Below are positions 17,950 to 31,211 of a stretch of DNA of 64,000 nucleotides, piece by piece (within the stretch, counting starts at the first letter, position 1; each line of letters begins with the position of its first letter). A model generated the notes under the pieces. That model was given only the letters and a program-made list of their open reading frames with translations, was not told where the DNA came from and searched no databases. Location of the stretch: assembly GCA_965207885.1 (NCBI GenBank), contig OZ242311.1:1024001-1088000 (forward strand), given 5' to 3'. Both the position numbers and the translations under genes were made by a program. This DNA comes from Candidatus Latescibacterota bacterium. Lineage in GTDB: Bacteria > Latescibacterota > UBA2968.

Positions 17950-18013
17950 AGTGAGAGGGCTTCACACGAAGACACGGAGACACAAAGATACAAGAAGTGG
18001 GAAGAGAGAAGTT

Positions 18014-18073
18014 TCATCGCGGCATGATTCCCTGCTCAACACCATGCAGGGACATGCTTGAGCCGCGATCCAG
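18014..18073. repeat. REP-like palindrome, copy 3, with nested hairpin insertion
   Basis: TCATCGCGGCATG-[ATTCCCTGC...GCAGGGA]-CATGCTTGAGCCGCGATCCAG. Confidence 0.7.
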
Positions 18074-18081
18074 TGTTTGCG

Positions 18082-18124
18082 AACTGTGGATGGGAAAACT
18101 TGATATCCCATTCACAGTTTTTTT
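18082..18124 (+). terminator. Intrinsic terminator after yceI, at the left edge of the island
   Basis: AACTGTGGATGGGA / TCCCATTCACAGTT stem followed by a T run. Confidence 0.65.
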
Positions 18125-18157
18125 ATAAAAATGCACCAATTCTGAAAAAAATGAAAA

Positions 18158-18235
18158 AATAAGAGATATTCGGAAGGAATAAGAGATATGCGGAATCTTT
18201 TTGGGTTGAACTTATAGACGCGATGGTGTTATCAT
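18158..18235 (+). promoter_or_regulatory. Tandem direct-repeat operator plus putative extended -10 promoter
   Basis: AATAAGAGATAT(T/G)CGGAA twice with 20-bp period (18158, 18178), then TTGAAC-N18-TATCAT with TG extension. Confidence 0.5.
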
Positions 18236-18613
18236 AAAAAAGCCGCTGACAAGACCAGGACAAGTCAAGTGTCAGCGGCAGCAAATATCTCAAGCTGATA
18301 ACTTGAGAAGGTTAAACAAAGGTAGCGACCTGAAGCGCGATTGTCAATGTGAATATAATGTTCAATACAAAAAGAGAAAATTGAACGATGTGTTCACTTC
18401 TCAATTCGATAGTCAGCTTGAACTTTATTCTACAATACTCTCTATATGGAATAAAAGTAACGCCTTAAAAAAATTATTATTTGAACAATTCATATTGGCA
18501 TACATGTTGCATGTATCTGTTTAAGCAGTAAAAAATCTGTTTTGAATCGTGTGGAAAGTCAGGCTCTAAGCCTCAAATATTTTAGACAGCGTTTTATCGC
18601 CCCGGAGAAAAAT

Positions 18614-19405
18614 ATGAACAAACAGAAAATTCTGATTATAGATCACGACCCCGGCATTCTATCGACCCTTGTCGGATTTCTGAGCGATGAACCTTATGAC
18701 GTTTGCACGGCGAGCAATGGGAAAGAAGGGCTTGAAATTTTGAGACGAGAGAAGATCGATCTCGCCATCGCTGAAATGTATATGGGAGGTCTTGATGGGG
18801 TCGCGCTTTTAAAGCGCGTTGCAATAGAGAAAATTCAGACAAACGTCCTGATCATGGAAAATGTTGTGCCTCTGGAAGTAGCCGAAAAAATACTCAAGGC
18901 CGGTACTGCAGGCGTATTGGACAAACCGACCAATAAGGACAGATTTTTGGCACAGATCAAAAACTGTATCCTACTAAATGAAGTGGAATACACTGGGGCG
19001 CGGGTCTATGAAGCACCTCGTTCACTGTCCAGACCCTCCTTCGCCCGAGTGCCTGCTTCGCAAGAGGCATTGGAATCATTTTTGGAGGAGCGTTACAGAG
19101 ATCCAGACCTGAAATTTGAAGACCTTACGCGCTATTTTGGTATCTCGCTGTCGCGTGGTCACGAGCTGTTTAGAAAACATTTTGACAGGACCTTCCGTGA
19201 AAAACTGAGGGAGGTCAGAATAGCACAGGCAGAGCATTTTTTAACACACTCATCACTGTTGATATATGAAATTGCACGCCTATGTGGGTTTCGCGGATCA
19301 AATCGTTTCTCTGAGGATTTCAAGAGGATACATGGCTTTTCTCCTACCCAGTATCGTAAAAAGTTTATGCGCGGAGAAATTCAGTCGTTTTCGGAAGATG
19401 TCTGA
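18614..19405 (+). CDS. Response regulator-like protein: atypical receiver plus AraC HTH
   Basis: CheY-like N-terminus with degenerate phospho-site; C-terminal IYEIARLCGF...FSEDFKRIHGFSPTQYRK; SD GGAG at 18604. Confidence 0.88.
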   Translation: MNKQKILIIDHDPGILSTLVGFLSDEPYDVCTASNGKEGLEILRREKIDLAIAEMYMGGLDGVALLKRVAIEKIQTNVLIMENVVPLEVAEKILKAGTAGVLDKPTNKDRFLAQIKNCILLNEVEYTGARVYEAPRSLSRPSFARVPASQEALESFLEERYRDPDLKFEDLTRYFGISLSRGHELFRKHFDRTFREKLREVRIAQAEHFLTHSSLLIYEIARLCGFRGSNRFSEDFKRIHGFSPTQYRKKFMRGEIQSFSEDV

Positions 19406-19477
19406 GTTCAATGTTCATTTGATCGGTCTAAATCTATCGGTGTTAGCCGTTATCGCAACCTGTCTTATGTCTCCAGT

Positions 19478-20656
19478 ATGGCTTTAGCCACCAGACAGCC
19501 TGAATCTGATCATGAGATCAAGCTAAAGGGCTTCGAATTTATAAGATTCTTCATTCTGTCTATTATCGCATTGAGTATTCTGCTTATTGCAGGGGTTGTG
19601 ATTTTAGGCTGGGATGTCGAAATGGAAATTAGTGTTGAGGCGTCGGGGCACGTTGAACCCGTTGAGAAAAAATTTGTCAAATCAGAGACCGTGGGGACGA
19701 TAGAGAAGGTGCTTATTCACGCGGGTCAGCAGGTCGCAAAAGGGGATACGCTTTTTGTTCTCGGTGCTTCAGAGTGGAGAAAAGAGGCCGCGAAAATAGA
19801 AAAAGAGATTGCAATTAATCAACGACAGAGAGAGGAACTCAGAGAGACATTATTTTTTGATCGGCAAAGGATAGAATCAAGTCTTGACCAGGCGCGGCTC
19901 GAACACGAAGCAAGCGGTCTTAGGCTTGAACAGATTTTACAGGAGCAACAATTGTATCAAAAATATCTGAAAGAGAGAAAGGAACGGACACGACCTCTTG
20001 AGACGCTTTTACCTGTAAAACTTCAGGAGAACAATCTCAACCGTGTTCAGCAACGCATGACCTATCTGAAAATTGAGCGTGATGCTCTGGCTGTTAGAGA
20101 GAAAGAAATCCAAACTTTGAAACTGGTGGGGGATAAGCTCATGCAAGAACGCGATTGGATTCAGGAACAGATACGGAAAACCACCATCACTTCCCCAATC
20201 GCAGGTATTATTCTGACATCAGATATTGAGACGATTGAGGGCGATAGGGTTTCGGTTGGTAGTCCGGTATTGGAATTGGCGCAGTTAAATGAATGGCAGG
20301 CGAGGGTTTTTGTGCAAGAGGTGGATATTTCAAAAATTGAAATGGGTCAAGATGTCAAATTGTACATCCATGCGTTTCCGCATATGAGTTACAAAATTTT
20401 TAGTGGTAGGGTGAGTGAATTGCCCAGCCGGAATCAAGTCGTGCCTCCCAATGCAACGGCTCTGACATTATACCCGGTGAAGATATTGATCGATGAACCT
20501 TTTGTTCGCAGTGGTGATCAGGTCTATCCGGTGGCGTATGGCATGCGGTTAGATGCGAAGATCATTATTGAAAGAAATTTTTTATGGGAAATTGCGTGGA
20601 AAAAGATAAAAGAGGCTTTTAGTATCGTTGACAAGAAAAATCCGTTGGTTTTTTAA
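19478..20656 (+). CDS. HlyD family membrane fusion protein
   Basis: N-terminal TM, lipoyl-like half motifs (GQQVAKGDTL; ITSPIAG), coiled coil and GMRLDAKI. Confidence 0.9.
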   Translation: MALATRQPESDHEIKLKGFEFIRFFILSIIALSILLIAGVVILGWDVEMEISVEASGHVEPVEKKFVKSETVGTIEKVLIHAGQQVAKGDTLFVLGASEWRKEAAKIEKEIAINQRQREELRETLFFDRQRIESSLDQARLEHEASGLRLEQILQEQQLYQKYLKERKERTRPLETLLPVKLQENNLNRVQQRMTYLKIERDALAVREKEIQTLKLVGDKLMQERDWIQEQIRKTTITSPIAGIILTSDIETIEGDRVSVGSPVLELAQLNEWQARVFVQEVDISKIEMGQDVKLYIHAFPHMSYKIFSGRVSELPSRNQVVPPNATALTLYPVKILIDEPFVRSGDQVYPVAYGMRLDAKIIIERNFLWEIAWKKIKEAFSIVDKKNPLVF

Positions 20657-20687
20657 TTGATGACAGGCAAACCGGAGATCGGGAATC

Positions 20688-22403
20688 TTGACGCAAATAT
20701 TCACTATTGTTAAGATGCTGCGGCCTTATTGGCGGTATATCATTCAGTCGCTTTGTGTTGGCATTTTGTTTATGTTGTTTCAGATACCAGGACCTTATTT
20801 CACGAAAATAATGATCGATGACGTATATCCGCATAAAGATTTCTCTCTGTTGAATTTTGTTCTGTTGTTGGGCATGCTCATGTCATTGGGTGTAGGCGGG
20901 ATGAGGTTTATCAGTGGGTATTTTGGTCAGTGTGTTGGCATCCGGATGGGGTATGATTTTCAAGCGCGTTTTTACAAACATATACAAACGTTGGATTTTG
21001 GTTTTTTTGATAGCCGGGAGACGGGTGAAATACTATCTCGATTTCGAGATATGCGAAGTTCAATTGCCAGTGTTATTAGTTTGATTAACACGCTGATTAT
21101 CAATTCGCTCCAACTCCTAATTTTTCCGCCCATTCTGTTCTTTATCAATTGGAAACTGGCACTGATTAGCCTTACAGTTTTGCCCTTTGACACGCTGTTG
21201 GTTATGATTTCAAGACGGTTTATCCGCAAATATACAAGGGAAGTTGCAGAACGCTCAGCAGAGTTATCGGCGAAAAATTACGAGTCCATCTCTTCAATTA
21301 GAACAGTGCAGTCTTTGGGGTTGGAAGCTTCATTTTTTCAGAAGCTACAGGGATTGTTCATCGGTGTGGCAAATTTGAGAATGAAAGTGTCGCTTTTTTC
21401 GGGCACAACGGGATATGCCAGCACCATTATCAAGACAGGCGGAACACTTGCCTACGGCTTCTACGGATGGCACGAGGTGTTATCTGACAATTTGACGTTG
21501 GGAAGTTATATGGCTTTTACGGGCTATGTGGGGTATTTGTATGGACCCATAAAAAGTCTCATTGGCCTGTTGCGGCGCATCGAATCCACGCTGGTTCATA
21601 CAGATCGCTTTTTTGAAGTCTATAATATTACGCCTGACATACGCGATGAACCGCAGTTGGCTGAACTCAACGGGGTTCGTGGAAGGATAGAGTTTCGAGA
21701 TGTCAATTTTGCATATCAGCCCGAAAGGGTGGTGTTGAACGAGATCAATCTCCAGATTGACGCCGATCAAACAGTCGCCATTGTTGGAAGAAGTGGGTCG
21801 GGCAAATCTACCCTGGCAAAGCTCATTCCGAGGTTCTACGATCCAGTGGATGGGCAGGTCTTGATCGATGGGGTCGATATCAGGCAATACCGTCTCAATT
21901 CTCTGCGACAAAATATCGGCTTTGTGATGCAAGGCAGTGCGCTGTTTCAGGGGAGTATTTTGGAGAATCTGACGTTTAACAAACCCATTTCCATGATTGA
22001 TGTCGAAGCCGCAACCCGGGCAGCCTATATCCACGATTTTGTCACGAAGCTCCCCAACGGCTATCACACTGTCATCGGTGAGCAGGGGGCGCAACTTTCA
22101 GAGGGGCAAAAGCAGAGGGTCGCACTTGCACGAGTGCTACTACAGAACACACCCATCTTGATTTTGGATGAACCCACTGCGGCACTGGATAACGAGTCTG
22201 AGTTTTATATTCAAGAAGCGATGAAGGAAATTTGCAAACAAAGAACAGTGATCGTCATTGCCCATCGTCTGTCAACCATCCGGCGTGCAGACAAAATCGT
22301 GGTCATCGACCAGGGAAGAATTGCTGAGGAAGGCAGCCACGAGGTTTTGATGCTGCAAGATGGTGTTTATTCCATGCTCCAGGAGAGAGCAGCGAGGATT
22401 TGA
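20688..22403 (+). CDS. ABC exporter, fused permease/ATPase, no C39 peptidase domain
   Basis: TM domain with TGEILSRF, Walker A GRSGSGKST, signature variant LSEGQKQR, LILDEPT and AHRLST. Confidence 0.92.
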   Translation: MTQIFTIVKMLRPYWRYIIQSLCVGILFMLFQIPGPYFTKIMIDDVYPHKDFSLLNFVLLLGMLMSLGVGGMRFISGYFGQCVGIRMGYDFQARFYKHIQTLDFGFFDSRETGEILSRFRDMRSSIASVISLINTLIINSLQLLIFPPILFFINWKLALISLTVLPFDTLLVMISRRFIRKYTREVAERSAELSAKNYESISSIRTVQSLGLEASFFQKLQGLFIGVANLRMKVSLFSGTTGYASTIIKTGGTLAYGFYGWHEVLSDNLTLGSYMAFTGYVGYLYGPIKSLIGLLRRIESTLVHTDRFFEVYNITPDIRDEPQLAELNGVRGRIEFRDVNFAYQPERVVLNEINLQIDADQTVAIVGRSGSGKSTLAKLIPRFYDPVDGQVLIDGVDIRQYRLNSLRQNIGFVMQGSALFQGSILENLTFNKPISMIDVEAATRAAYIHDFVTKLPNGYHTVIGEQGAQLSEGQKQRVALARVLLQNTPILILDEPTAALDNESEFYIQEAMKEICKQRTVIVIAHRLSTIRRADKIVVIDQGRIAEEGSHEVLMLQDGVYSMLQERAARI

Positions 22404-22545
22404 TATGTTCAAAGCAAAGTGCCCAATTCTAAAAGCACCTCTTGACAAGGAAAGGAGGTAAATGAAAAATCACTACACGGTGCTTTGTCCATAGTGAATG
22501 GAAAACATTCACCGATTTCTAATTTTTACAGTATTGGAGGATCAC

Positions 22546-23022
22546 ATGCAAAAGCTGGTGAAAAGAAGGATGCATTACGAAACCATTATGCCCGTTGAGG
22601 CTTATGACGATGAAAAAAAGAAAGAGGATGAGAACACGGCCGATATTATTGGTGCTTCTCTTACGTTTCTGGGTATAGTAGTAACGACGTCTGGGGGTCC
22701 TGTTAGCCAAGCTGCAGGAATGCTTCTCGCTGGCGGGGGTCTCGCGACTACGGCTATCCATAATGAACAATTTACAGAGACAGCAAGAGAAGTAGCTACT
22801 GTTGAGGCAGAGACTGATTTAATAATATCTGAGGGTCTCGTAGATGCAGGCAGTGCTGGAGCCAGTGCTATAGGTGAAGGAATCTTAGCTGTAGGTGCTG
22901 CTGTCGAAGCTGTAGAAGAATTTGCCGGACATGTAGCCGAGAGAGCACCACAGGCGATGGCAGATGCGGTTACAGAAATGGTTGAGACGATAACCGACTT
23001 TGGGGACGATGGCGGAGGTTAA
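22546..23022 (+). CDS. Putative precursor/secreted toxin with a leader ending VEAY
   Basis: SD GGAGG at 22536; basic 20-aa leader MQKLVKRRMHYETIMPVEAY, then an acidic Ala/Gly-rich core with a hydrophobic hairpin; sits directly after the exporter. Confidence 0.6.
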   Translation: MQKLVKRRMHYETIMPVEAYDDEKKKEDENTADIIGASLTFLGIVVTTSGGPVSQAAGMLLAGGGLATTAIHNEQFTETAREVATVEAETDLIISEGLVDAGSAGASAIGEGILAVGAAVEAVEEFAGHVAERAPQAMADAVTEMVETITDFGDDGGG

Positions 23023-23088
23023 TTCAAATAAACCTACATTTCGTTGTAAATTAAAAATGTAGTATGGGCCAGTTTTTATGGATCATTG

Positions 23089-23126
23089 CAGGTATTGCAC
23101 TCTTGTATATTTGAGTGCAATACCTG
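23089..23126 (+). terminator. Perfect 14-bp stem-loop after the precursor gene
   Basis: CAGGTATTGCACTC / GAGTGCAATACCTG; no clear U-tract, so possibly an mRNA-stabilising or attenuating hairpin. Confidence 0.6.
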
Positions 23127-23175
23127 AATTGCTCATTCTTCCCCGAAACTTGATAGCAAGAATAAGAGAAGCTGT

Positions 23176-24087
23176 ATGCTTAAATCATTTTCAAAAATCG
23201 AGACAAAAAAAATCCTGATTTACTTTCTCTTACTTTTTTTTCTCTTAGGATGTATTCATGCTATTCTAAAAATTACAGGTAATATAAGTCCTGGGGAAAC
23301 ACCTCCTTGGGGTATATGGATCTTCATTTTTTTTATAATCTGGATGTTGTTCAACTTGCGAAGACCTGGTAAGACCTTGAGTGAATTATTAGGTACCAAT
23401 ATTACCTTTTCAAAATTGGAAGTTATGGCCATATCCATGGGGAAATTCTTGCTGGCTTTTGGATTTACAATTCTGGTTCTTCGCCCATTATTTGGTTTTG
23501 AGATAGGTTCCATGTATTTGATGCGCTACAAATTAAGTATGGGACATTTTTCATTGGACCCAATACATTTTATTAAATTGATAATTTTATCTCCAATAGC
23601 AGAGGAATTGTTCTTTAGGGGCTATTTGCTGCAAAGGCTTTCGGCCAAATGGGGATTGAAAACTGGGTTGTTCATTTCCGCCGTTATCTTTTCTGTCGTG
23701 CATCCAAATATCTTTAGTGCTTTGATTTTGGGTCTTTTGACTACGCTCATTTATGTCAAAACTCAAAATATCTTCGCTCCAATCTTGTGTCATAGTCTTA
23801 GTAATGCCTTCGTTGTTTTTAGATTTTTTCTCATATACAGTTTCGCCAGGTTGGAATCTTTACTCCAGATCAATGTCTCTCTAACCACCTTTGGTCTGAT
23901 CTTGCTCATTCCTGGCTTCTTGATCACAGGTTATTTTATTTTTAAACTCTGGTCTGTATTAAACGATCCGCCTGACGGTGCATCTGTCTCCGCCCCTTCT
24001 TGCGCTACCGCAGACAAGTATGATGTGTCGGCAGACAAGGATACTACAGACAGGCTTGCTCAGCAGACGAGTCAGGACGGTAATTAA
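23176..24087 (+). CDS. CPBP/Abi (CAAX-type) intramembrane metalloprotease, possible immunity factor
   Basis: EELFFRG, FSVVH and HSLSN motifs. Confidence 0.88.
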   Translation: MLKSFSKIETKKILIYFLLLFFLLGCIHAILKITGNISPGETPPWGIWIFIFFIIWMLFNLRRPGKTLSELLGTNITFSKLEVMAISMGKFLLAFGFTILVLRPLFGFEIGSMYLMRYKLSMGHFSLDPIHFIKLIILSPIAEELFFRGYLLQRLSAKWGLKTGLFISAVIFSVVHPNIFSALILGLLTTLIYVKTQNIFAPILCHSLSNAFVVFRFFLIYSFARLESLLQINVSLTTFGLILLIPGFLITGYFIFKLWSVLNDPPDGASVSAPSCATADKYDVSADKDTTDRLAQQTSQDGN

Positions 24088-24258
24088 ACCAAGTTCTTAA
24101 AGAAGGCAGGAAATCTTCTCATCCAGGGTGGAGGACCTGAAAAATGCCGATAGATTTAAAAAAATTTTATACCTGCCCGAATGTGGACATCCTGTGGGGT
24201 GGTGGCGCAAATTCCGTACGGAAGTAAAGGATCCGCCGATACCCCTAACCCATTTGAA

Positions 24259-25260
24259 ATGAAAACGATGCCTAAAAATAAAGTCCTATCTCATATTGGT
24301 GCAGCCATAAATCATGTTTATGGGCCTGCAAGCATAGACTATAAGCCTACAGAACTGGTCGTGTTGTGTCTGGTTCGCGATGGGCAAGCATACATGCGAA
24401 CATTTATTGAACATTATTTGGGACTTGGAATCCGGCATATCATTTTTTTGGATAATGGTTCAAAAGACAGGACGATTGCCATTGCCAGGCAGTATCCCCA
24501 AATATCCATCTTTTCTACCACGCTGTCGTATAAAGAATATAAATATCAAATGAAGGAATATTTGATTCGCCGGTTCGGGCAGAACAGATGGTCACTCTAC
24601 GTGGATATTGATGAACTGTTCGACTTTCCATCATCGGATAAAATCCGCATAAGAGACCTTTTGGAATATTTAAACGTTCATTCATTTACCGCAGTCGTGG
24701 CGCAAATGCTGGATATGTTTTCGGAAGATACGTTAGCAAATTTGCCCGATGCAGAATCGACTCCCCTAAAGGATGCTTGCAATTATTACGATTTGTCGGA
24801 TATCGCTAAAGAAGCGTATTCAGATTCTGAATTTTGTCCTCATAATTTTGTTTCCAACCAAAGGATTGCCCATCATAAAGGTGGCATAAGACAGACGCTT
24901 TTTGGTGCAGATTGTTCTTTAACGAAACATCCGCTTATTTTTTTAGATGACGAGATCAAACCTATGTGTGAGTCTTCTCATAAGATCGAAAATGGATATA
25001 TCGCAGATATTACAACTGTGCTCTACCATTTCAAATTTATCGATGGTTTTGAAAACCTCACTCAAAGGGCGGTGCATGAAGAGAATTACTGGATGGATTC
25101 ACGAGAATACAAAAGATATTATGAAGTCATGAAACGCGACCCCAATCTCGTGATAAAACAGAAAACTTCGAGAAAGCTAAACAGCATTGACGAATTGGTG
25201 GAGTGCGGATTTCTTGTTGTTTCGAAAAATTTTCAGAATTGGGGTGTCATAGGCAGTTGA
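24259..25260 (+). CDS. Glycosyltransferase family 2-like protein
   Basis: VRDG..Y...FIEHY..LG, DNGSKD, YVDIDE (DxD) and LYHFKF motifs; start uncertain (24181/24259/24268). Confidence 0.82.
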   Translation: MKTMPKNKVLSHIGAAINHVYGPASIDYKPTELVVLCLVRDGQAYMRTFIEHYLGLGIRHIIFLDNGSKDRTIAIARQYPQISIFSTTLSYKEYKYQMKEYLIRRFGQNRWSLYVDIDELFDFPSSDKIRIRDLLEYLNVHSFTAVVAQMLDMFSEDTLANLPDAESTPLKDACNYYDLSDIAKEAYSDSEFCPHNFVSNQRIAHHKGGIRQTLFGADCSLTKHPLIFLDDEIKPMCESSHKIENGYIADITTVLYHFKFIDGFENLTQRAVHEENYWMDSREYKRYYEVMKRDPNLVIKQKTSRKLNSIDELVECGFLVVSKNFQNWGVIGS

Positions 25261-25288
25261 TATACGGAGATTTGATTGCGAGTCTAAA

Positions 25289-26320
25289 ATGAAAAAAGAG
25301 TTGCCTATAGGAATGCCCCGGATTACTTGCGCGCTTCATCATGCGTATCCGCTGTCCATATTGGCAATCTCGGATGATTATCTCCCCTGGTTTTATAGCC
25401 ATTATATCCAGATGGAATACGAAACAGACCATAAATATAGATTCAACTTTTATCGCTACCCCCACTATCTTGTGTCTGTATCTCCTTGGTTGCAAATTCA
25501 GATGATGCATCATAATGTCGTTCGCAGGGCGTATAAAAACGCGGTAGATTTCGTTAAAGACGCCATCAATGAAAATTTATATATCCAAATGGATGTCGAT
25601 GAGTTTTATATCCCTCACAAAGAGTTGTACAATCGTCACCATTACACGCGCGAATTGCTTATTTACGGATATGACTCACTAAATCAAACCCTTAAGACGC
25701 TGGGCTTTAACGCAGAGGGGAATTATACGTCGAACAATGTTTCTTTTCGTCAGTTTGAGGAAGCTCATATAAATTCTATCTCAAACAATGAGCAGGATTG
25801 CAGAGTATTTATGTTCAGATATATAGATAACGCACAATATGAATTCGACCTCAATGCCGTTCTTGAACAACTGCAAGATTATCTCTATGCAGTCAACACG
25901 TCGAAAAGATTCAGGAGTTTAGCACCTGTCAAAAACTATGCTTATGGTCTTGCGACATATAGGGTTATTCAGAATTATCTTTTGTTTAAGGCTGACAATG
26001 CAAGTGATATTAACCGTATAACTTTTCACACGCTTTGGGAGCATAAAAAATGCATGACAGAACGTCTTAATTTTTTGGAACAACACGGATTTTTAAGTTC
26101 ATCTTTTGGGTTGCAGATGGCTTATGAAAGCGTAGAAAAAAAGACACAGCAATTGCGCGCCATGTCTTTTAAGTATGTCCTGACAAAAGATACTGCGATT
26201 GTAGAAAGGATGGTTGAATTGATCAACATAATCGCGTCGGAAGAGAAGCAGATATTAGTGCGTGTTTGTGCTGCTCTGAAGAGCGGGATGGAGGGGATTA
26301 ATAATTCCAACACGGTTTAG
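25289..26320 (+). CDS. BtrH-like protein, paralog 1 (putative ACP-dependent acyltransferase/peptidase fold)
   Basis: PWFYSHYIQ, VDEFYIP..., LIYGYD, YGLATY and TLWEHKKCM motifs shared with 29219-30255. Confidence 0.55.
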   Translation: MKKELPIGMPRITCALHHAYPLSILAISDDYLPWFYSHYIQMEYETDHKYRFNFYRYPHYLVSVSPWLQIQMMHHNVVRRAYKNAVDFVKDAINENLYIQMDVDEFYIPHKELYNRHHYTRELLIYGYDSLNQTLKTLGFNAEGNYTSNNVSFRQFEEAHINSISNNEQDCRVFMFRYIDNAQYEFDLNAVLEQLQDYLYAVNTSKRFRSLAPVKNYAYGLATYRVIQNYLLFKADNASDINRITFHTLWEHKKCMTERLNFLEQHGFLSSSFGLQMAYESVEKKTQQLRAMSFKYVLTKDTAIVERMVELINIIASEEKQILVRVCAALKSGMEGINNSNTV

Positions 26321-26377
26321 TGTGTACCCAACTCGATTACTGCGTAACGTCGTAAATCAAGAGAGGAGACATACAGT

Positions 26378-26836
26378 ATGAAAACACGAATCATCATATG
26401 GGTGGCCTCACTGGTCTTAACAGGGGCACTTAATGTAGTCGCAGAAGAAATGCCTGACCCGGCTTCTGTATCCAAGATAGCGGATATCAAACGCCTGATG
26501 GAAATAACCGATGTACGCAATCTTGGCAGGAAAATTATGAATCGGCTGGTTCTCACCATGAGGAAAGGTCGTTCAGCAGTTCCTTGGGATGATTTCATGG
26601 CTGAATTTGACGTCAATGAGTTTATTGAAATGATTATACCCATTTACGACAAGCATTTCACCCATGAGGAAATCAAGCAACTGATCGCATTTTATGAGTC
26701 TCCTATAGGGAAAAAGATGATTAAAGTTCAACCTCAACTTATGATGGACAGCATGGCAGCGGGCGAAGAGTGGGGAAAAAAGTTGATCAAGAGAGTCAAG
26801 GAAAAACTCCACGAAGAAGGATATGAAAAAAACTAA
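26378..26836 (+). CDS. DUF2059 domain exported protein
   Basis: YDKHFTHEEIKQLIAFYESPIGKK motif; signal peptide. Confidence 0.8.
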   Translation: MKTRIIIWVASLVLTGALNVVAEEMPDPASVSKIADIKRLMEITDVRNLGRKIMNRLVLTMRKGRSAVPWDDFMAEFDVNEFIEMIIPIYDKHFTHEEIKQLIAFYESPIGKKMIKVQPQLMMDSMAAGEEWGKKLIKRVKEKLHEEGYEKN

Positions 26837-27018
26837 TCTATGCGTCACACCATTTTTGATTGCGCTGAAAAATTTATTTGGAAAAATGTGCGGTAATTGA
26901 GCGACAGTTATTCGTCTATCGGGTGGTTCGCACAAGGCGGTGATCATCGCTCTATTTACCTATCAAAACGCGGATAGCTGAGTTGTATGGACTTGAACCG
27001 GATATTTAATGGCTTGTT

Positions 27019-28950
27019 ATGTATATCATACAGAAAAAATACAAATGCAATTTCCATGATCTAAGCGGAGAAGGTGTCAAGGTTGCAATTATCGATAGCG
27101 GGATTGATCGTTCTCATGAAGTGTTGCAGCGTGTGACCGCAGGAATCTGTTTTGAGTTTTCTGCGGGCAATGTCCTTACGTCTGAAGACTATCGAGACAC
27201 ATCTGGTCATGGCACTGCGGTTGCGAGTATTATCAAAAAGAAGGCTCCGGGTACAGAGCTATATGCTATAAAAATCTTCGATCAATCTCTGATTGTCGAA
27301 CAAAAAATTCTCCTTGAATCCATTCGCTGGGCAATTGATCAGAACGTCGATATCATCAATCTGAGCCTTGGGACAACAGACATCCAGGTCAAGAATGCTC
27401 TGTTGGATATATGTAAGGTGGCAACGAAAAAGGGTATCGCAATCGTCGCTGCCGAACACAATTCAGGGCAGGAGAGTTATCCCGCCTATTTCTCCAATGT
27501 GATCGGTGTGAAGGCGGGGGAGATAAAAGGGCGTTACAATTATCTGTTTTGTGCAGGAGAGTCTATTGAATGTATCGCACCTGGAACAACGCAGCGCGTT
27601 CTCTGGACAGGTGGGCGAGAGCATATTGTTGAAGGCAGTAGCTTTGCTGCGCCTCACCTCACGGGCATTATCGCATTAATCAAACAGGCCTTTCCCAAAG
27701 CCAATCTGAATGAGATCAGACACATATTAGAGGTGAATGCCAGTCGAGAAGTGCAGCAACAAATCCCTTCAGGTCGCAAGATTCGGGTGCATACTCCCCA
27801 AACGTCCCAATCCTTTGATCCAAACAAGATTAAAAGAGCAGCTATTTATCCCTATAACAAGAAAATGCATAGTCTAATGCGTTTCAGGGAGTTGTTAAAT
27901 TTTGAAATTGTGGGTATCGCTGATCCCATTGCCAAAGGTTATGTTGGGAAAGATGCTGGTGAAGCGATTGGCATACCGCCCGTTGGCATACGGGTTCAGC
28001 CGCGATTTCAAGAGATATTGAAAGAGGCTGATACGCTTATTCTGGGCTATGTAGATGAACTGAGTCGAATTACTAAAAAGAATGTCCTGCGCGAGAGTAT
28101 TGAGAAGGCCATTGATGCCAACTTAAATGTGTTCAGCTTTCTGTCCGTTTATCAGAAGGATTTAAGAGATTTGATTGATAAGGCTCGTAAAAAGAACCTC
28201 TGGATTTATTCGCCTGACGTTCATCAAAATGACCTGCTCAAAGCACTTCAGCCCCACAATAATCCAGCCGTTGATGTGCCAGTTATCGGTGTTTTTGGCA
28301 CGAGTGCTCAACAGGGTAAGTTCACTGTTCAACTCGCCTTGAGGTCAAAGCTGATAAAAGAGGGATATAAGGTTGGGCAAATCGGTACCGAACACCATTC
28401 TCAGTTATTTGGAATGGATGTGGCATTTCCAACGGGCTACGCCTCTCCACTGCAATTTCCAATACAGCTTCACGCGCCTTATCTGGATTTCAAAATGCGC
28501 GAGATCTGTGCGAATAAGAAACCGGATTTAATGCTTGTCGGGGCACAGTCGGGAAGTATCCCCTATGATGTCCATGAGCCGGGAAATCACACGCTTTCAA
28601 CACTTGTTTTTATGCTGGGTACAAAACCCGATGCCAATATATTGGTCGTGAATAGCGTTGATGATGGCGAGTATATACGCGATACCATGAACACGCTCAA
28701 GGCAATTACCAAAGGCCCCGTGTTATGCCTCGCAATGAGTGATAAAGAAAAACACATCCGAGCAGCTTATGGCCGAACACTGATTAGTCCGCGTCAAATG
28801 TCAAAAGAAGAAATCAAAGAGAAATTGGCGTATTTGGAGGATAGATTTGAGATTCCAGCTATAGAGATTGTGTCAGAGGAGGGGCAACAGAGGATGGTTG
28901 ACCTCATTATAAGCTACTTTGCAGATGAGCAAGAAGGAGGGGATGTATGA
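27019..28950 (+). CDS. S8 subtilase fused to a DUF1611/TIGR04066-like P-loop domain
   Basis: Triad IIDSG, GHGT, GSSFAAP; C-terminal half has PVIGVFGTSAQQGKF..QL and GYKVGQIGTE; no signal peptide. Confidence 0.8.
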   Translation: MYIIQKKYKCNFHDLSGEGVKVAIIDSGIDRSHEVLQRVTAGICFEFSAGNVLTSEDYRDTSGHGTAVASIIKKKAPGTELYAIKIFDQSLIVEQKILLESIRWAIDQNVDIINLSLGTTDIQVKNALLDICKVATKKGIAIVAAEHNSGQESYPAYFSNVIGVKAGEIKGRYNYLFCAGESIECIAPGTTQRVLWTGGREHIVEGSSFAAPHLTGIIALIKQAFPKANLNEIRHILEVNASREVQQQIPSGRKIRVHTPQTSQSFDPNKIKRAAIYPYNKKMHSLMRFRELLNFEIVGIADPIAKGYVGKDAGEAIGIPPVGIRVQPRFQEILKEADTLILGYVDELSRITKKNVLRESIEKAIDANLNVFSFLSVYQKDLRDLIDKARKKNLWIYSPDVHQNDLLKALQPHNNPAVDVPVIGVFGTSAQQGKFTVQLALRSKLIKEGYKVGQIGTEHHSQLFGMDVAFPTGYASPLQFPIQLHAPYLDFKMREICANKKPDLMLVGAQSGSIPYDVHEPGNHTLSTLVFMLGTKPDANILVVNSVDDGEYIRDTMNTLKAITKGPVLCLAMSDKEKHIRAAYGRTLISPRQMSKEEIKEKLAYLEDRFEIPAIEIVSEEGQQRMVDLIISYFADEQEGGDV

Positions 28951-29216
28951 ATGATGATCTAAAGATACAGATAAAACAGACGATTGTGCGTGCGTTAAAC
29001 CTTGAAATTGATCCCGAAGAGATAGGAGATTCAGATGTGCTTTTTGGTGGAGAAATGGGTCTCAATTCAATGGCAATGGTTGAACTCGTTGTGGGCATAG
29101 AAGATGAATTTGACCTTGAAATCTCAGATGAAGATCTGAGTGCCGAAGTTTTTAAAAGTGTGCAGACGATTGAAGATTATATCCGGTCTGTGCGTGAGTG
29201 CGTTTTGACTGCCTGA
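28947..29216 (+). CDS. Acyl carrier protein
   Basis: Acidic 89 aa, GLNSMAMVEL (Ppant Ser), IEDEFDLEISDE; ATGA overlap with the protease gene. Confidence 0.88.
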   Translation: MNDDLKIQIKQTIVRALNLEIDPEEIGDSDVLFGGEMGLNSMAMVELVVGIEDEFDLEISDEDLSAEVFKSVQTIEDYIRSVRECVLTA

Positions 29217-29218
29217 AA

Positions 29219-30255
29219 ATGAAAAAATCGCTTCCCATCCAGTTATCCCCACCCATCCACGGCTATCCCCGCCATGGCTACCGACTTTCGATTATGTCGC
29301 TTCACGATGCGTATATTCCCTGGTTCTTCTGCAATTACATACAGCTATTCGCCGTTGATCTGTTAAATGAGAGCAAACACAACATCCGATTCAACTTCTA
29401 TTTTCAGGGTCCATACTCCCCGCCGTGGCTGTCTATCTACACCGTTCCACGGCGATCAATTGCTAAAGTCTATCATCAGATTGTGCCGTTTATTCGAGAT
29501 CAGATTGATGAGGGTTTTTATGTCCAGTTGATGGCCGATGAGTATTTCCTGCCGATGAGTATTTCCTGCCGCATACGCCATTTTATGAGAAGATACATCA
29601 TCCACATGCTATTATGGCATTTGGATACGATGACGATACAGAAACGCTTGAGACTCTGGGATTCAATAGAGCGCGGGACTACTCTGTTTCAAGGGTTGGA
29701 TATTCAGATTTTGAAGCGGCGTTTCGCTGGGTTGATCCCGAGAAACGCAGATCGTACCTGGTGACTCTTTTTGAGTATAATGAGGACGGTATCTATGAGT
29801 TTGACATTGATGCTGTCATTGACCAGTTGCGAGCCTACATCCATTCAGAGAATCCGTCTATTCACTATCGGATGTTGCGTAAGCCGGTTGAAGGCGTTTT
29901 TGGGATGGCGACGTATAAGCTCTTGCGAGATTATTTTACGCATTTGTTTGTTCAGCCTCGGTTGTGGGATCGGCGGCATCTGTTCACGCTTTGGGAGCAC
30001 AAGCGTTGTATGTTAGACAGGCTTGCTTATCTGGAAGAGCGCGGGTATTTGCGTCCGTCAGACCAGTTTCATCAGGCGTACAAGGAGGTCGAGCATAAGG
30101 CGCATCAGATTCATCTGATGATGCTTAAATTGCGAGCGTTGGTGGAGGTCAAGAGAGCGTGGGATGTGGATCGTATTTTGAAGATTATCACCTTGTTAGA
30201 TGATATTTCTCAAAGGGAAGAGCGCATTCTGAAGGATGTTTTGAAGGCGCTTTGA
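29219..30255 (+). pseudogene. BtrH-like protein, paralog 2, frameshifted by a 17-bp tandem duplication
   Basis: GCCGATGAGTATTTCCT duplicated at 29534-29567; removing one copy joins the two ORFs into 339 aa colinear with paralog 1. Confidence 0.85.
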
Positions 30256-30278
30256 AACGCGTACACGATAGCACATAG

Positions 30279-30322
30279 AATCCCCTATTGCGCGTTATTG
30301 CGATGGGGGATTGGTTTTTTTT
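30279..30322 (+). terminator. Intrinsic terminator at the right edge of the island
   Basis: AATCCCCTATTGCG / TGCGATGGGGGATT stem (with G-U pairs) then a T run, between convergent genes. Confidence 0.65.
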
Positions 30323-31211
30323 ACATCAATTTTTTGCGTTTGGCGAGGTAGTTGAAGAGGGCGGTGTCAAAGGGTTCCGAGGTTTCGAGGAGGACGTAGT
30401 CGATCATGGCTTCGCGGCATTCGCGGCGAAAGCGGTTGATGAGGGTTTCCATGTGATCTCGGTACTCGGGTGCGAGGTGCCAGGGTTCTGTGGCGATTTG
30501 CGTGCCGGATTCGAGATCGACAAAGCGCATTTCACGGTTGAAGTCGAGGTCGCGCTCTCGGGGGTCCAGGATGTGGAAGACGATGACTTCGTGGTTGCGA
30601 TGGCGAAAGTGTTTGAGGCCGTTGAGCAGGCGGTCTGGGTCGTCGAAGAGGTCGGAGATGACGATGACGAGGCCGCGACGCACAATGCGTTCTGCCAGTT
30701 CGTGAAAGGTGGCGGCGAGGTCGGTGTCGGTGCCTTCGGGGCTGGTGTTTTGAAGTGTGGTGAGGAGGGTGTGCAAATGACTGGTGACTGACCGGGGCTG
30801 CAAATACGTGCGAATGCGGTCGTCAAAGGCGATTAATCCGACGGCGTCGCGCTGGCGCAACATGAGGTGGGATAGGGCGGCTGCGGTATAAGATGCGTAT
30901 TGGTATTTGGTGATGGCGTCCGAGCCATAAGCCATTGAGGCACTGGCGTCTATGAGAAGATGGGATTTGAGGTTGGTTTCTTCTTCGTATTGTTTGACGT
31001 AGAGGCGGTCGGTTTTGCCAAATACTTTCCAGTCCAGGTCGCGCAGTGAGTCCCCCGGCATGTATTGCCGGTATTCAGAGAATTCGACAGAGAAGCCGTG
31101 ATAGGGGCTTTGATGTAGGCCGGTGATAAATCCTTCGACGACCATGCGGGCGATCAGGTCCAGGCGCGCGAGCCGGGAGACGACTTCTGGTTTGAGATAT
31201 TCCTGGTTCAT
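30321..31211 (-). CDS. DUF58 (MoxR-associated vWA-like) protein
   Basis: GLHQSPYHGFSVEFSEYRQY.PGD, DWKVFGKTD and DASASM motifs. Confidence 0.9.
   Translation of the reverse strand: MNQEYLKPEVVSRLARLDLIARMVVEGFITGLHQSPYHGFSVEFSEYRQYMPGDSLRDLDWKVFGKTDRLYVKQYEEETNLKSHLLIDASASMAYGSDAITKYQYASYTAAALSHLMLRQRDAVGLIAFDDRIRTYLQPRSVTSHLHTLLTTLQNTSPEGTDTDLAATFHELAERIVRRGLVIVISDLFDDPDRLLNGLKHFRHRNHEVIVFHILDPRERDLDFNREMRFVDLESGTQIATEPWHLAPEYRDHMETLINRFRRECREAMIDYVLLETSEPFDTALFNYLAKRKKLM

Follow-up and report, generated by a model that had tools for sequence, protein, structure and literature searches.

Background

The described systems closest to the locus reported here are the CLI_3235/CcpM systems of Bacillota, which combine an S8 protease, a TIGR04066-like protein, a small acyl carrier protein (ACP) and ATP-binding cassette (ABC) export with a radical S-adenosylmethionine (SAM) enzyme (CcpM, TIGR04068), and in which leaders of the type MxKLVKR … EA-Y/F precede Cys-rich cores of 10-45 amino acids (AA) in precursors of the TIGR04065 family. 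For the roles of TIGR04066 and TIGR04069 (acyl carrier-related) in the Bacillota systems, PMC10731318 offers only guesses. The CLI_3235-family precursor SacP23 from Paenibacillus polymyxa starts with MRKLVKR and has a predicted leader ending in EAF (Table 2 of PMC10731318), and mature SacP23 from the whole CLI_3235/TIGR04066 cluster is described there as Edman-resistant and of a mass unlike the predicted one. The locus reported here is an island of 11 genes, all on the + strand and spanning 18542-30255, in a stretch of 64,000 nucleotides (the window, G000:C1:1024001-1088000) from the genome of a Candidatus Latescibacterota bacterium (G000, a single contig C1 of 6.23 Mb). It shares the S8 protease, the TIGR04066-like domain, the small ACP, ABC export and the leader type with the CLI_3235/CcpM systems, but has no radical SAM gene, belongs to a Latescibacterota host and carries a core of 138 AA that is Cys-free, acidic and Gly/Ala-rich; it also adds HlyD, a receiver-AraC regulator, a CPBP protein, a DUF2059 protein and a GT2-family glycosyltransferase (GT). 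The island is a previously undescribed variant, with no radical SAM, protein-sized polymorphic cores and optional GT modules, of a maturation system that is catalogued but biochemically uncharacterised. On balance, it is probably a self-contained locus for the production, leader-guided maturation and export of a polymorphic bacteriocin-like protein, by the steps proposed below.

Two further groups of described systems bear on the possible chemistry of the island. CtaG and its structural homologues BtrH and AsbE are papain-like ligases that transfer acyl groups from carrier-protein-bound donors to amines, in CtaG with a Cys11-His128-Asp144 triad (PMC12865890). N-acylated RiPPs (peptides made by the ribosome and then modified post-translationally), namely the selidamides, lipolanthines, goadvionins and lipoavitides, all use GNAT-family acyltransferases according to PMC13647313. 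As in the route proposed here, they proceed from a ribosomal precursor through leader removal to N-acylation. The island differs from them in offering DUF1611-fold and papain-like candidates together with a dedicated ACP and a protein-sized core, and no GNAT acetyltransferase family was detected among its 11 proteins with Pfam.

The literature found for TIGR04065, TIGR04066, TIGR04068, TIGR04069, CLI_3235, CcpM and DUF1611 consisted only of genome-mining mentions and PMC10731318. No description of the Latescibacterota variant without radical SAM or of the shared leader was found in searches of the main texts. Literature on Latescibacteria, sponges and RiPPs yielded only general surveys of biosynthetic gene clusters. 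The srp RiPP clusters of sponge symbionts were considered and set aside as unrelated, since the accessible text of PMC9426513 describes proteusins and azol(in)e modification, with no S8 or ACP terms.

Conservation of the cassette across phyla

Comparison loci (L-numbers) were fetched with the S8::DUF1611 fusion (20 loci) and with a profile of stand-alone TIGR04066-like proteins (80 loci), the latter including Bacillota, Treponema, Ignavibacteriota and Gemmatimonadota. Neighbouring genes were counted around 97 distinct TIGR04066-like genes, up to a distance of 9 kb, using profiles and phmmer on six-frame open reading frames (ORFs). Contig ends truncate several of the loci, which makes absences soft.

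The frequency of the radical SAM gene differs between the host groups. It was found near 22/26 of the genes in Bacillota, 3/3 in Treponema and 2/2 in Ignavibacteriota, compared to 1/60 in Latescibacterota and 0/5 in Gemmatimonadota. The only Latescibacterota match, in L058, may be an unrelated neighbour, since the near-identical sister locus L059 has none. In the island itself, no radical SAM domain was detected among the 11 proteins with Pfam and NCBIfam, and phmmer with four Bacillota radical SAM queries found none in window positions 12001-38000. The other components recur: among the 60 Latescibacterota genes, 48 have an ACP within 3 kb (Bacillota are undercounted here because their ACP lies farther away), 37 a BtrH-like gene (18 of 26 in Bacillota), 44 an ABC gene and 20 an HlyD gene.

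Four annotated Bacillota loci contain a radical SAM/SPASM protein, an ACP, a peptide of 32-45 AA (Cys-bearing and 31-45 AA long over the fetched Bacillota loci), a pair of ABC genes, an S8::TIGR04066 fusion and a protein of ~335 AA. This last protein is homologous to the family of UnkA, one of the two BtrH-like proteins (UnkA and UnkB) of the island (hhalign 98.6%, E 1.3e-15, 312 columns). The initial annotation had read the island as the same chassis in an apparently non-clostridial host that does without the radical SAM enzyme, and this is supported by the matching genes, the leader type, the BtrH-like homology and the radical SAM counts. Its expectation that the gene set co-occurs in other genomes also holds, as the cassette of S8::DUF1611, ACP, BtrH-like protein and ABC/HlyD spans phyla.

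Leader and precursor

The precursor gene, located between the exporter and membrane-protein genes, starts at 22546 and encodes 158 AA. It has 47 homologues of 124-157 AA, none of them named, and a feature search of a protein atlas returned only unnamed clusters with a best score of 0.85. When 31 members are aligned, the first 20 residues are invariant or nearly so: of the first 23 columns, 14 show no variation and another four reach at least 90% conservation (consensus MQKLVKR[KR]MHYETIMPVEAY), in contrast to a mean column identity of 29% over the whole alignment. A strict pattern for this leader occurs in exactly two ORFs of the genome, one for each of its S8::DUF1611 clusters. Behind the 20-residue leader, the remaining 138 AA agree with the earlier estimate of a ~138-AA product, and the absence of a Cys-rich core is borne out: the core has 0 Cys, is acidic (26 D+E, 5 K+R) and contains a Gly/Ala-rich hydrophobic stretch. 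Precursors of the family end in alternative C-terminal tails (…DDPxVQxYGE, …GRVLH, …REGGG, …DDGGG). One homologue, P0133, ends nearly identically to the C-terminal tail of the CPBP protein of the window (…DKDTTNRLAQQTSQD…), which suggests that a deletion or recombination fused a precursor gene with the 3' part of a CPBP gene.

Leaders of the type MxKLxK…A/L-Y also precede unrelated cores beside the same cassette. These ORFs were collected by regular expression on the cassette strand, and false positives were discarded by eye. They were found in L001, L011, L018, L002, L043, L048, L049, L061, L066, L081, L082 and L087 for Latescibacterota and Gemmatimonadota, and in L070, L073, L075, L077, L083, L086, L089, L090, L094, L102, L104 and L105 for Bacillota and Treponema. 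Examples are MVKLKKKRPMFYKFTGKIARAY… in L001 (MVKLKKKRPMFYKF…ARAY in L001 and L011), MKTTLHKPQREATNAVLAY… in L048, MKKLVKKSSRKSNRKVYLY… in L090, MKKLIKPCKLLKINLVEAY… in L070 and MKKTLYKPE…VVAY… in Treponema L073 and L077. Common to them are a basic start, MxKLxK(K/R/P), and an aliphatic-Tyr/Phe end, which fits the P1 preference of subtilisin-type proteases.

The S8::DUF1611 fusion and its carrier protein

The S8 domain of the fusion (Peptidase_S8, E 2.9e-31) is predicted to be cytoplasmic, and its triad residues D26, H64 and S208 lie in columns that are invariant or at least 90% conserved among 50 aligned fusions. The C-terminal domain matches DUF1611_N (E 8.2e-5) and DUF1611 (E 2.4e-11). Together with PP-binding in the ACP, the Peptidase_S8 and DUF1611 models proposed for checking were thus all matched. 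The model of the DUF1611 domain (predicted local distance difference test, pLDDT, 90.1) retrieved 2obn (3e-14), 2g0t (3e-13) and 7xrj (6e-13) with Foldseek, the last being 'N-acetyltransferase DgcN' by entry title only. The domain shares with these entries a two-domain Rossmann-like and P-loop fold (Foldseek E 1e-12 to 3e-14, TM-scores 0.6-0.7), but differs from DgcN in being fused to S8 and paired with an ACP, in an identity of only ~15% and in having no DgcN model among its NCBIfam matches. DgcN, which belongs to D-glutamate catabolism, uses acyl-CoA. A P-loop-like motif GTSxxQGKF (GTSxQQGKF in the window) and ~20 further columns of the domain show no variation among 40 sequences representing four phyla.

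In a search of the full library with the DUF1611 domain, 1376 representatives had E<=1e-3, and 431 of them had E<=1e-30. Most of the top matches are fused to S8: among the best 150, 125 are at least 562 AA long and are matched in their C-terminal part. In a quick, unrooted tree of 58 DUF1611 domains, from which a filter of E<=1e-60 excluded all Bacillota and Treponema, the window falls in a starred clade of seven rows with L001-L005 and L011, and Latescibacterota and Gemmatimonadota stand apart from Ignavibacteriota; the tree gives no order of radical SAM gain or loss. A modelled complex of the fusion with precursor residues 1-45 scored 0.01 against a mark of 0.32, with the fold of the partner itself uncertain, and weighs neither for nor against an interaction.

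The ACP gene overlaps the stop codon of the fusion gene, and its own end overlaps the start of the UnkB ORF, so that the carrier protein is encoded adjacent to a BtrH-like protein. The attachment serine is kept in 75/77 distinct cassette ACPs, the other two being low-complexity false matches. In the Latescibacterota locus L014, directly past the fusion and the ACP, a 900-AA protein (L014:12306-15008) consists of an unassigned N-terminal region of ~370 AA, a PP-binding domain and a nonribosomal peptide synthetase Condensation domain, which links the cassette to thiotemplate chemistry.

The BtrH-like proteins

UnkA and UnkB have no Pfam or NCBIfam match even at E<=10, including BtrH_N (PF14399). 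As a direct domain match, the label of both proteins in the initial annotation therefore fails; it stands indirectly through a fold match and through BtrH_N matches in 14/44 aligned members of the UnkA family (best E 1.8e-6). For UnkA, 87 homologues were found at E<=1e-3, almost none of which carries a name; a few match PF14399, and one has a UniRef name after butirosin protein H. A family profile matched PDB sequences only at E>=0.15 (AziU3/Azi29 at E 2.5), which called for a fold search. The AlphaFold2 model of UnkA (pLDDT 93.8, predicted TM-score 0.91) has an N-terminal alpha/beta and a C-terminal helical domain, and Foldseek matched it to AziU2/U3 (E 1.1e-8), CtaG (~2e-8) and CcbD (1.1e-4, including complexes with a peptidyl carrier protein), with a probability of 1.00, TM-scores of 0.47-0.65 and ~12% identity. 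UnkA is thus modelled with the bipartite papain-like and helical fold of carrier-protein-dependent ligases.

With CtaG (closthioamide), BtrH (butirosin), AsbE (petrobactin), CcbD (lincosamides) and AziU2/U3, UnkA shares the fold and a carrier protein gene nearby. Differences from CtaG-type ligases are an identity of only ~12%, a triad that is incomplete in UnkA, in UnkB and in most of the family, and the likely acceptor, which would be a ribosomal protein, whereas the acceptor of those ligases is a small molecule or another carrier protein. Triad positions were equated by position and spacing in sequence and not by residue-level superposition. On this basis, UnkA has Cys14 but Arg121, a combination shared by its three closest relatives, and UnkB has Gly at position 14 and keeps the His. 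In the family, position 14 is Cys in 7/44 and Gly in 29/44, position 121 is His in 40/44 and Arg in 4/44, and at position 141, 17 of the 44 sequences have Asp and 15 have Asn. Invariant are W34, Q41, E251, K253, C255 and E319; some of these belong to a helical-domain motif, WEHKxCM, that is without mention for CtaG-type ligases in the accessible text of PMC12865890.

The scarcity of a nucleophilic Cys (Gly in 29/44) and the missing conserved His in UnkA could mean that the locus only cleaves and exports. S8 would then remove the leader, ABC/HlyD would export an unmodified class-II-like protein bacteriocin, and the DUF1611 domain, the ACP and the BtrH-like proteins would be non-catalytic, serving in leader binding, as chaperones or as scaffolds. 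Such a role agrees with the NCBIfam description of TIGR04069 as only 'acyl carrier-related' and with the absence of a RiPP recognition element (RRE)-like leader-binding domain from the island in Pfam searches, so that another protein must bind the leader. We nonetheless consider it unlikely, as the ACP serine is kept throughout the true ACPs, the GTSxxQGKF motif and the further DUF1611 columns are invariant across four phyla, and the invariant polar residues Q41, E251, K253, C255 and E319 of the BtrH-like family suggest an active site. Joint conservation of the three proteins across phyla also fits scaffolding poorly.

A second alternative concerns the substrate. The GT2 and UnkA genes form a two-gene insert, and the pair recurs in another genome, G017 (83% and 76% identity), where the GT2 copy adjoins the UnkA orthologue in a module of ACP, GT28-like, GT2, UnkA, GT4, S8::DUF1611 and receiver-AraC genes; GT2 is also found in L049. 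L048, L049, L050 and L055 contain compact ACP-GT-BtrH-like-(GT)-S8 modules whose genes overlap. From such modules, it could be argued that the ACP, the GTs and the BtrH-like enzyme make an acylated sugar or glycolipid and that the small ORF is not a substrate; the CcbD fold matches include a methylthiolincosamide complex, and BtrH acts in the biosynthesis of butirosin, an aminoglycoside. This is quite improbable, given that a leader-type serine protease is fused to DUF1611 in 95/101 locus rows, that leader ORFs lie beside the cassette in four phyla, including L048 and L049 themselves, and that most cassettes have no GTs. Glycocins such as sublancin and glycocin F are GT2-dependent glycosylated bacteriocins, and they resemble the island in having a GT2-family gene in a bacteriocin-like export locus. 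The island differs from them in pairing Glyco_tranf_2_4 with a BtrH-like gene, in lacking a Cys-stabilised helical hairpin and in the restriction of GTs to a minority of cassettes.

Integrity and variation of the island

The 11-gene, co-oriented order described in the initial annotation was confirmed by ORF positions together with Pfam and NCBIfam. Its AT-richness was also borne out, with a GC content of 0.428 compared to 0.537 and 0.513 in the flanks, the lowest sampled in the genome: 0/2073 sampled 12-kb windows are as low (mean 0.511, standard deviation 0.022). Of the terminators claimed on both sides, the downstream one is strong, whereas at the upstream edge the scan found none on the + strand and, on the minus strand, one weak site (18308-18288). 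Overall, the scan gave 10 terminator-like sites compared to 10.9 expected from shuffles. At 18153-18192, on the upstream edge before the regulator gene, two direct repeats of 20 bp lie in tandem (GAAAAAATAAGAGATATTCG / GAAGGAATAAGAGATATGCG) and are possibly a regulator binding site.

The region 18000-30400 occurs in sequencing runs X1-X20, which are sponge and marine metagenomes by run label and come from 10 studies; Logan contigs of four runs were aligned to it. A 3864-nt contig of X1 is identical to 22530-26393 and confirms the precursor-CPBP-GT2-UnkA arrangement. Other joints in X1 contigs, from 22607 to 24182 and from 24213 to 27037, indicate co-existing variants or paralogues without the CPBP-GT2-UnkA-DUF2059 part. 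Joints at 22607 are present in both X1 and X5 and lie 1-2 bases past codon 20, so DNA identity between variants stops at the leader/core border.

In the assembly, a perfect tandem duplication of 17 bp (29534-29567) interrupts UnkB, while the UnkB-type gene is in one frame in L001, L002, L004, L005, L006, L011 and the second cluster of the genome. The 17 bases are left out in X1 (128.6 of 128.6 depth, on a 538-nt contig that is otherwise identical), in X3 (4.97 of 4.97) and in X5 (13.2 of 25.5), and the intact form is present in DNA of at least two studies. Since contigs of three runs are without the duplication, the break probably reflects an artefact of assembly or else a minor variant. As an explanation of TGA flags in the BtrH-like genes, selenocysteine or read-through was rejected for the two cases checked, of which one is the terminal stop reached by an over-extended match in the second cluster and the other the frameshift site of the window.

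This split gene and the lowest GC content of any sampled 12-kb stretch could also be taken as signs of a horizontally acquired remnant that no longer works. Such decay is very improbable: besides the runs without the duplication, all other island genes are open. The flanking monomeric isocitrate dehydrogenase, YceI and DUF58 genes also bracket related clusters in L004 and L005, which makes the locus an old, maintained and variable site and not a fresh insertion. Moreover, a second intact cluster lies ~100 kb downstream, outside the window (G000:C1 ~1144800-1153800). It consists of receiver-AraC, HlyD, ABC, four zinc-ribbon and transmembrane (TM) genes, a precursor of 136 AA that shares the leader, S8::DUF1611, ACP and an intact UnkB-type gene. 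Between the two clusters, the S8 fusions are 96% and the ACPs 97% identical, compared to 45% for the precursors.

In the clade of the window, the maturation genes are 84-94% identical while the cargo region changes. The cargo comprises a zinc-ribbon/TM protein, precursor, CPBP and DUF2059 in L003, up to four tandem zinc-ribbon and TM genes in L004, L005 and the second G000 cluster, and a different core plus a protein with TPR and Peptidase_C39_2 domains in L001 and L011.

Proposed mechanism

The biochemical steps, including the cleavage site, the transferred group and its site, the loader of the ACP, glycosylation, immunity and toxicity, we infer as follows. The 20-AA N-terminal leader MQKLVKRRMHYETIMPVEAY would be the handle for the maturation enzymes. 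The cytoplasmic S8 domain would cut behind the aromatic last residue of the leader (P1 Tyr20 here, Tyr/Phe in relatives). The DUF1611/DgcN-fold domain, holo-ACP and the CtaG/BtrH-fold protein or proteins would then transfer an acyl or aminoacyl group from the ACP to one of the amines of the core, most likely to its newly exposed N terminus. In the island of the window, the extra GT2 and UnkA pair could contribute a sugar-related step. The ABC/HlyD pair would export the matured product, and the receiver-AraC protein would regulate the operon. Protection of the producer would fall to the membrane protein CPBP, perhaps together with the periplasmic DUF2059 protein, and in other loci to zinc-ribbon proteins.

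A broader proposal can be made only tentatively and is possible at best: the S8::DgcN-fold fusion, the ACP and the triad-less CtaG/BtrH-fold protein may form a GNAT-free machine that cuts the leader and acylates the N terminus, possibly with an acyl-sugar, and that serves both the Cys-rich peptides of Bacillota and Treponema and the polymorphic cores of sponge-associated Latescibacterota (65-158 AA). The Edman resistance and unexpected mass of SacP23 reported in PMC10731318 fit a blocked N terminus.

Several points weigh against these proposals. The Edman result for SacP23 (PMC10731318) has other possible explanations. The island proteins do not reach the curated cutoffs of TIGR04065, TIGR04066 and TIGR04069. 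TIGR04065 had no match at E<=10 among six precursors, the one in the window included. For TIGR04066, the match expected by the initial annotation is full-length, covering positions 1-360 of 361 (E 6.2e-43), but its 147.2 bits are below the cutoff of 200; the fetched Bacillota S8::TIGR04066 fusions score even lower, with 73-96 bits. TIGR04069 gave 21.9 bits with a cutoff of 70 and was outscored by PP-binding and generic ACP models, by which measure the protein is an ACP but not a TIGR04069 equivalog. Another point is the ACP loader, as no adenylating enzyme, ATP-grasp or FabD-like protein was detected among the 11 island proteins with Pfam and NCBIfam; candidates for this step are the DUF1611-fold domain as well as the BtrH-like proteins. 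In the BtrH-like proteins, the Cys-His-Asp triad of CtaG is incomplete in UnkA as well as UnkB, and the incomplete triad and the predominance of Gly in the family make a Cys-acyl ping-pong mechanism unlikely for most members. The top fold match, AziU2/U3, is to our knowledge not an acyltransferase. GTs are not a general feature either: any of three GT types is near only 9/60 Latescibacterota TIGR04066-like genes, and GT2 is outside the conserved gene set. In the RNA-library run X15, contigs 90-95% alike cover only 27037-30167 and may reflect DNA carry-over; uncovered parts and small word shares of the RNA runs X15-X20 were not counted as evidence. Finally, there is no evidence of antibacterial activity, export or immunity for any member from Latescibacterota.

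The S8/DUF1611/ACP/BtrH-like cassette is common and without assigned chemistry. Since the Latescibacterota variant has no radical SAM step, the chemistry of the module could be read directly on a Cys-free substrate, which makes this variant a convenient starting point for the chemistry that the family as a whole performs. Should the module acylate, ribosomal lipoproteins or lipopeptides would be reached by a non-GNAT route, and the conserved 20-residue leader would be potentially useful for engineering. If the GNAT-free machine exists as proposed, it would be a class-defining new post-translational modification in hundreds of clusters (431 representatives at E<=1e-30). The genus carries several polymorphic cluster copies per genome, which, together with the sponge and marine runs, suggests that they serve competition among densely packed symbionts.

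Regulator, export and accessory genes

The features of the island are listed in Table 1. The label 'AraC regulator' of the initial annotation is right for the HTH_18 part and incomplete in that a receiver domain is also present; homologues of this regulator flank related clusters. The HlyD protein scores 84 bits on TIGR01843 (type_I_hlyD), under the model cutoff. The ABC exporter has no C39 peptidase match in Pfam, and no space is left for such a domain, since the gene begins 32 nt past HlyD and ABC_membrane starts at residue 31. In this, and in a leader that ends in Ala-Tyr and not Gly-Gly, the island differs from C39/double-glycine bacteriocin exporters.

Table 1. Features of the island in window coordinates.
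Feature	Position	Strand	Basis
Regulator, response-regulator receiver and AraC-type helix-turn-helix (HTH)	18542-19405	+	Response_reg E 6.2e-19, HTH_18 E 7.5e-17
HlyD membrane-fusion (periplasmic adaptor) protein	19478-20656	+	HlyD_3, HlyD_D23
ABC exporter, permease and ATPase	20688-22403	+	ABC_membrane residues 31-287, ABC_tran 350-498
Promoter-like site, TTGACA-17-AAAAAT, 10/12 matches, consensus match only	22442-22470	+	upstream of precursor
Precursor, 158 AA, no family (longer ORF from 22498)	22546-23022	+	47 homologues
Putative leader, 20 residues, MQKLVKRRMHYETIMPVEAY	22546-22605	+	conserved N terminus
Hairpin, inverted repeat I3, 22-nt arms 86% complementary, 10-nt loop	23081-23134	+	past precursor gene
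CPBP (Rce1-like) intramembrane protease family protein	23176-24087	+	Rce1-like E 9.9e-20
GT2-family glycosyltransferase, accessory	24181-25260	+	Glyco_tranf_2_4 E 3.3e-20
UnkA, predicted papain-like BtrH/CtaG/CcbD-fold protein	25289-26320	+	structure model, Foldseek
DUF2059 protein, signal-peptide-like N terminus	26378-26836	+	DUF2059 E 5.6e-24
S8 protease (1-~270) fused to DUF1611/DgcN-fold, TIGR04066-like domain (~272-643)	27019-28950	+	Pfam, NCBIfam
ACP, attachment serine in GLNSM	28947-29216	+	PP-binding E 1.7e-10
UnkB, second BtrH/CtaG-fold paralogue, probable ATG 29219	29198-30255	+	UnkA paralogue
Intrinsic terminator closing the operon	30279-30322	+	14-pair stem, 6 GC pairs, then GGTTTTTTTT

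The hairpin past the precursor gene may act as an attenuator or mRNA stabiliser. The true start of GT2 is possibly near 24262, since the ORF of the G017 copy begins at the equivalent of window residue 28. DUF2059 orthologues sit before the S8 fusion in L003 and L004.

The CPBP protein, which has an orthologue (58% identity) at the equivalent position in L003, is a candidate immunity protein. In other loci, its position is occupied by tandem zinc-ribbon and TM proteins. These are proteins of 90-127 AA with a CPxC…CxxCG zinc ribbon and two hydrophobic helices and without a Pfam match, and they are likewise candidate immunity proteins. Their families surround the precursor gene in L002/L032, L004, L005 and the second G000 cluster, in up to four tandem copies.

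A second type of cluster was observed around the same fusion in L008, L009 and L012, and in part in L007 and L013. It contains an AhpC/TSA thioredoxin-like protein, two Yip1-domain membrane proteins, MauE/DoxX, a GT28-like glycosyltransferase, a TPR protein and extra ABC genes, and among these five loci a leader-type ORF was found in L012 only (MQKLVKPGRFVYNESLKDVIAY…).

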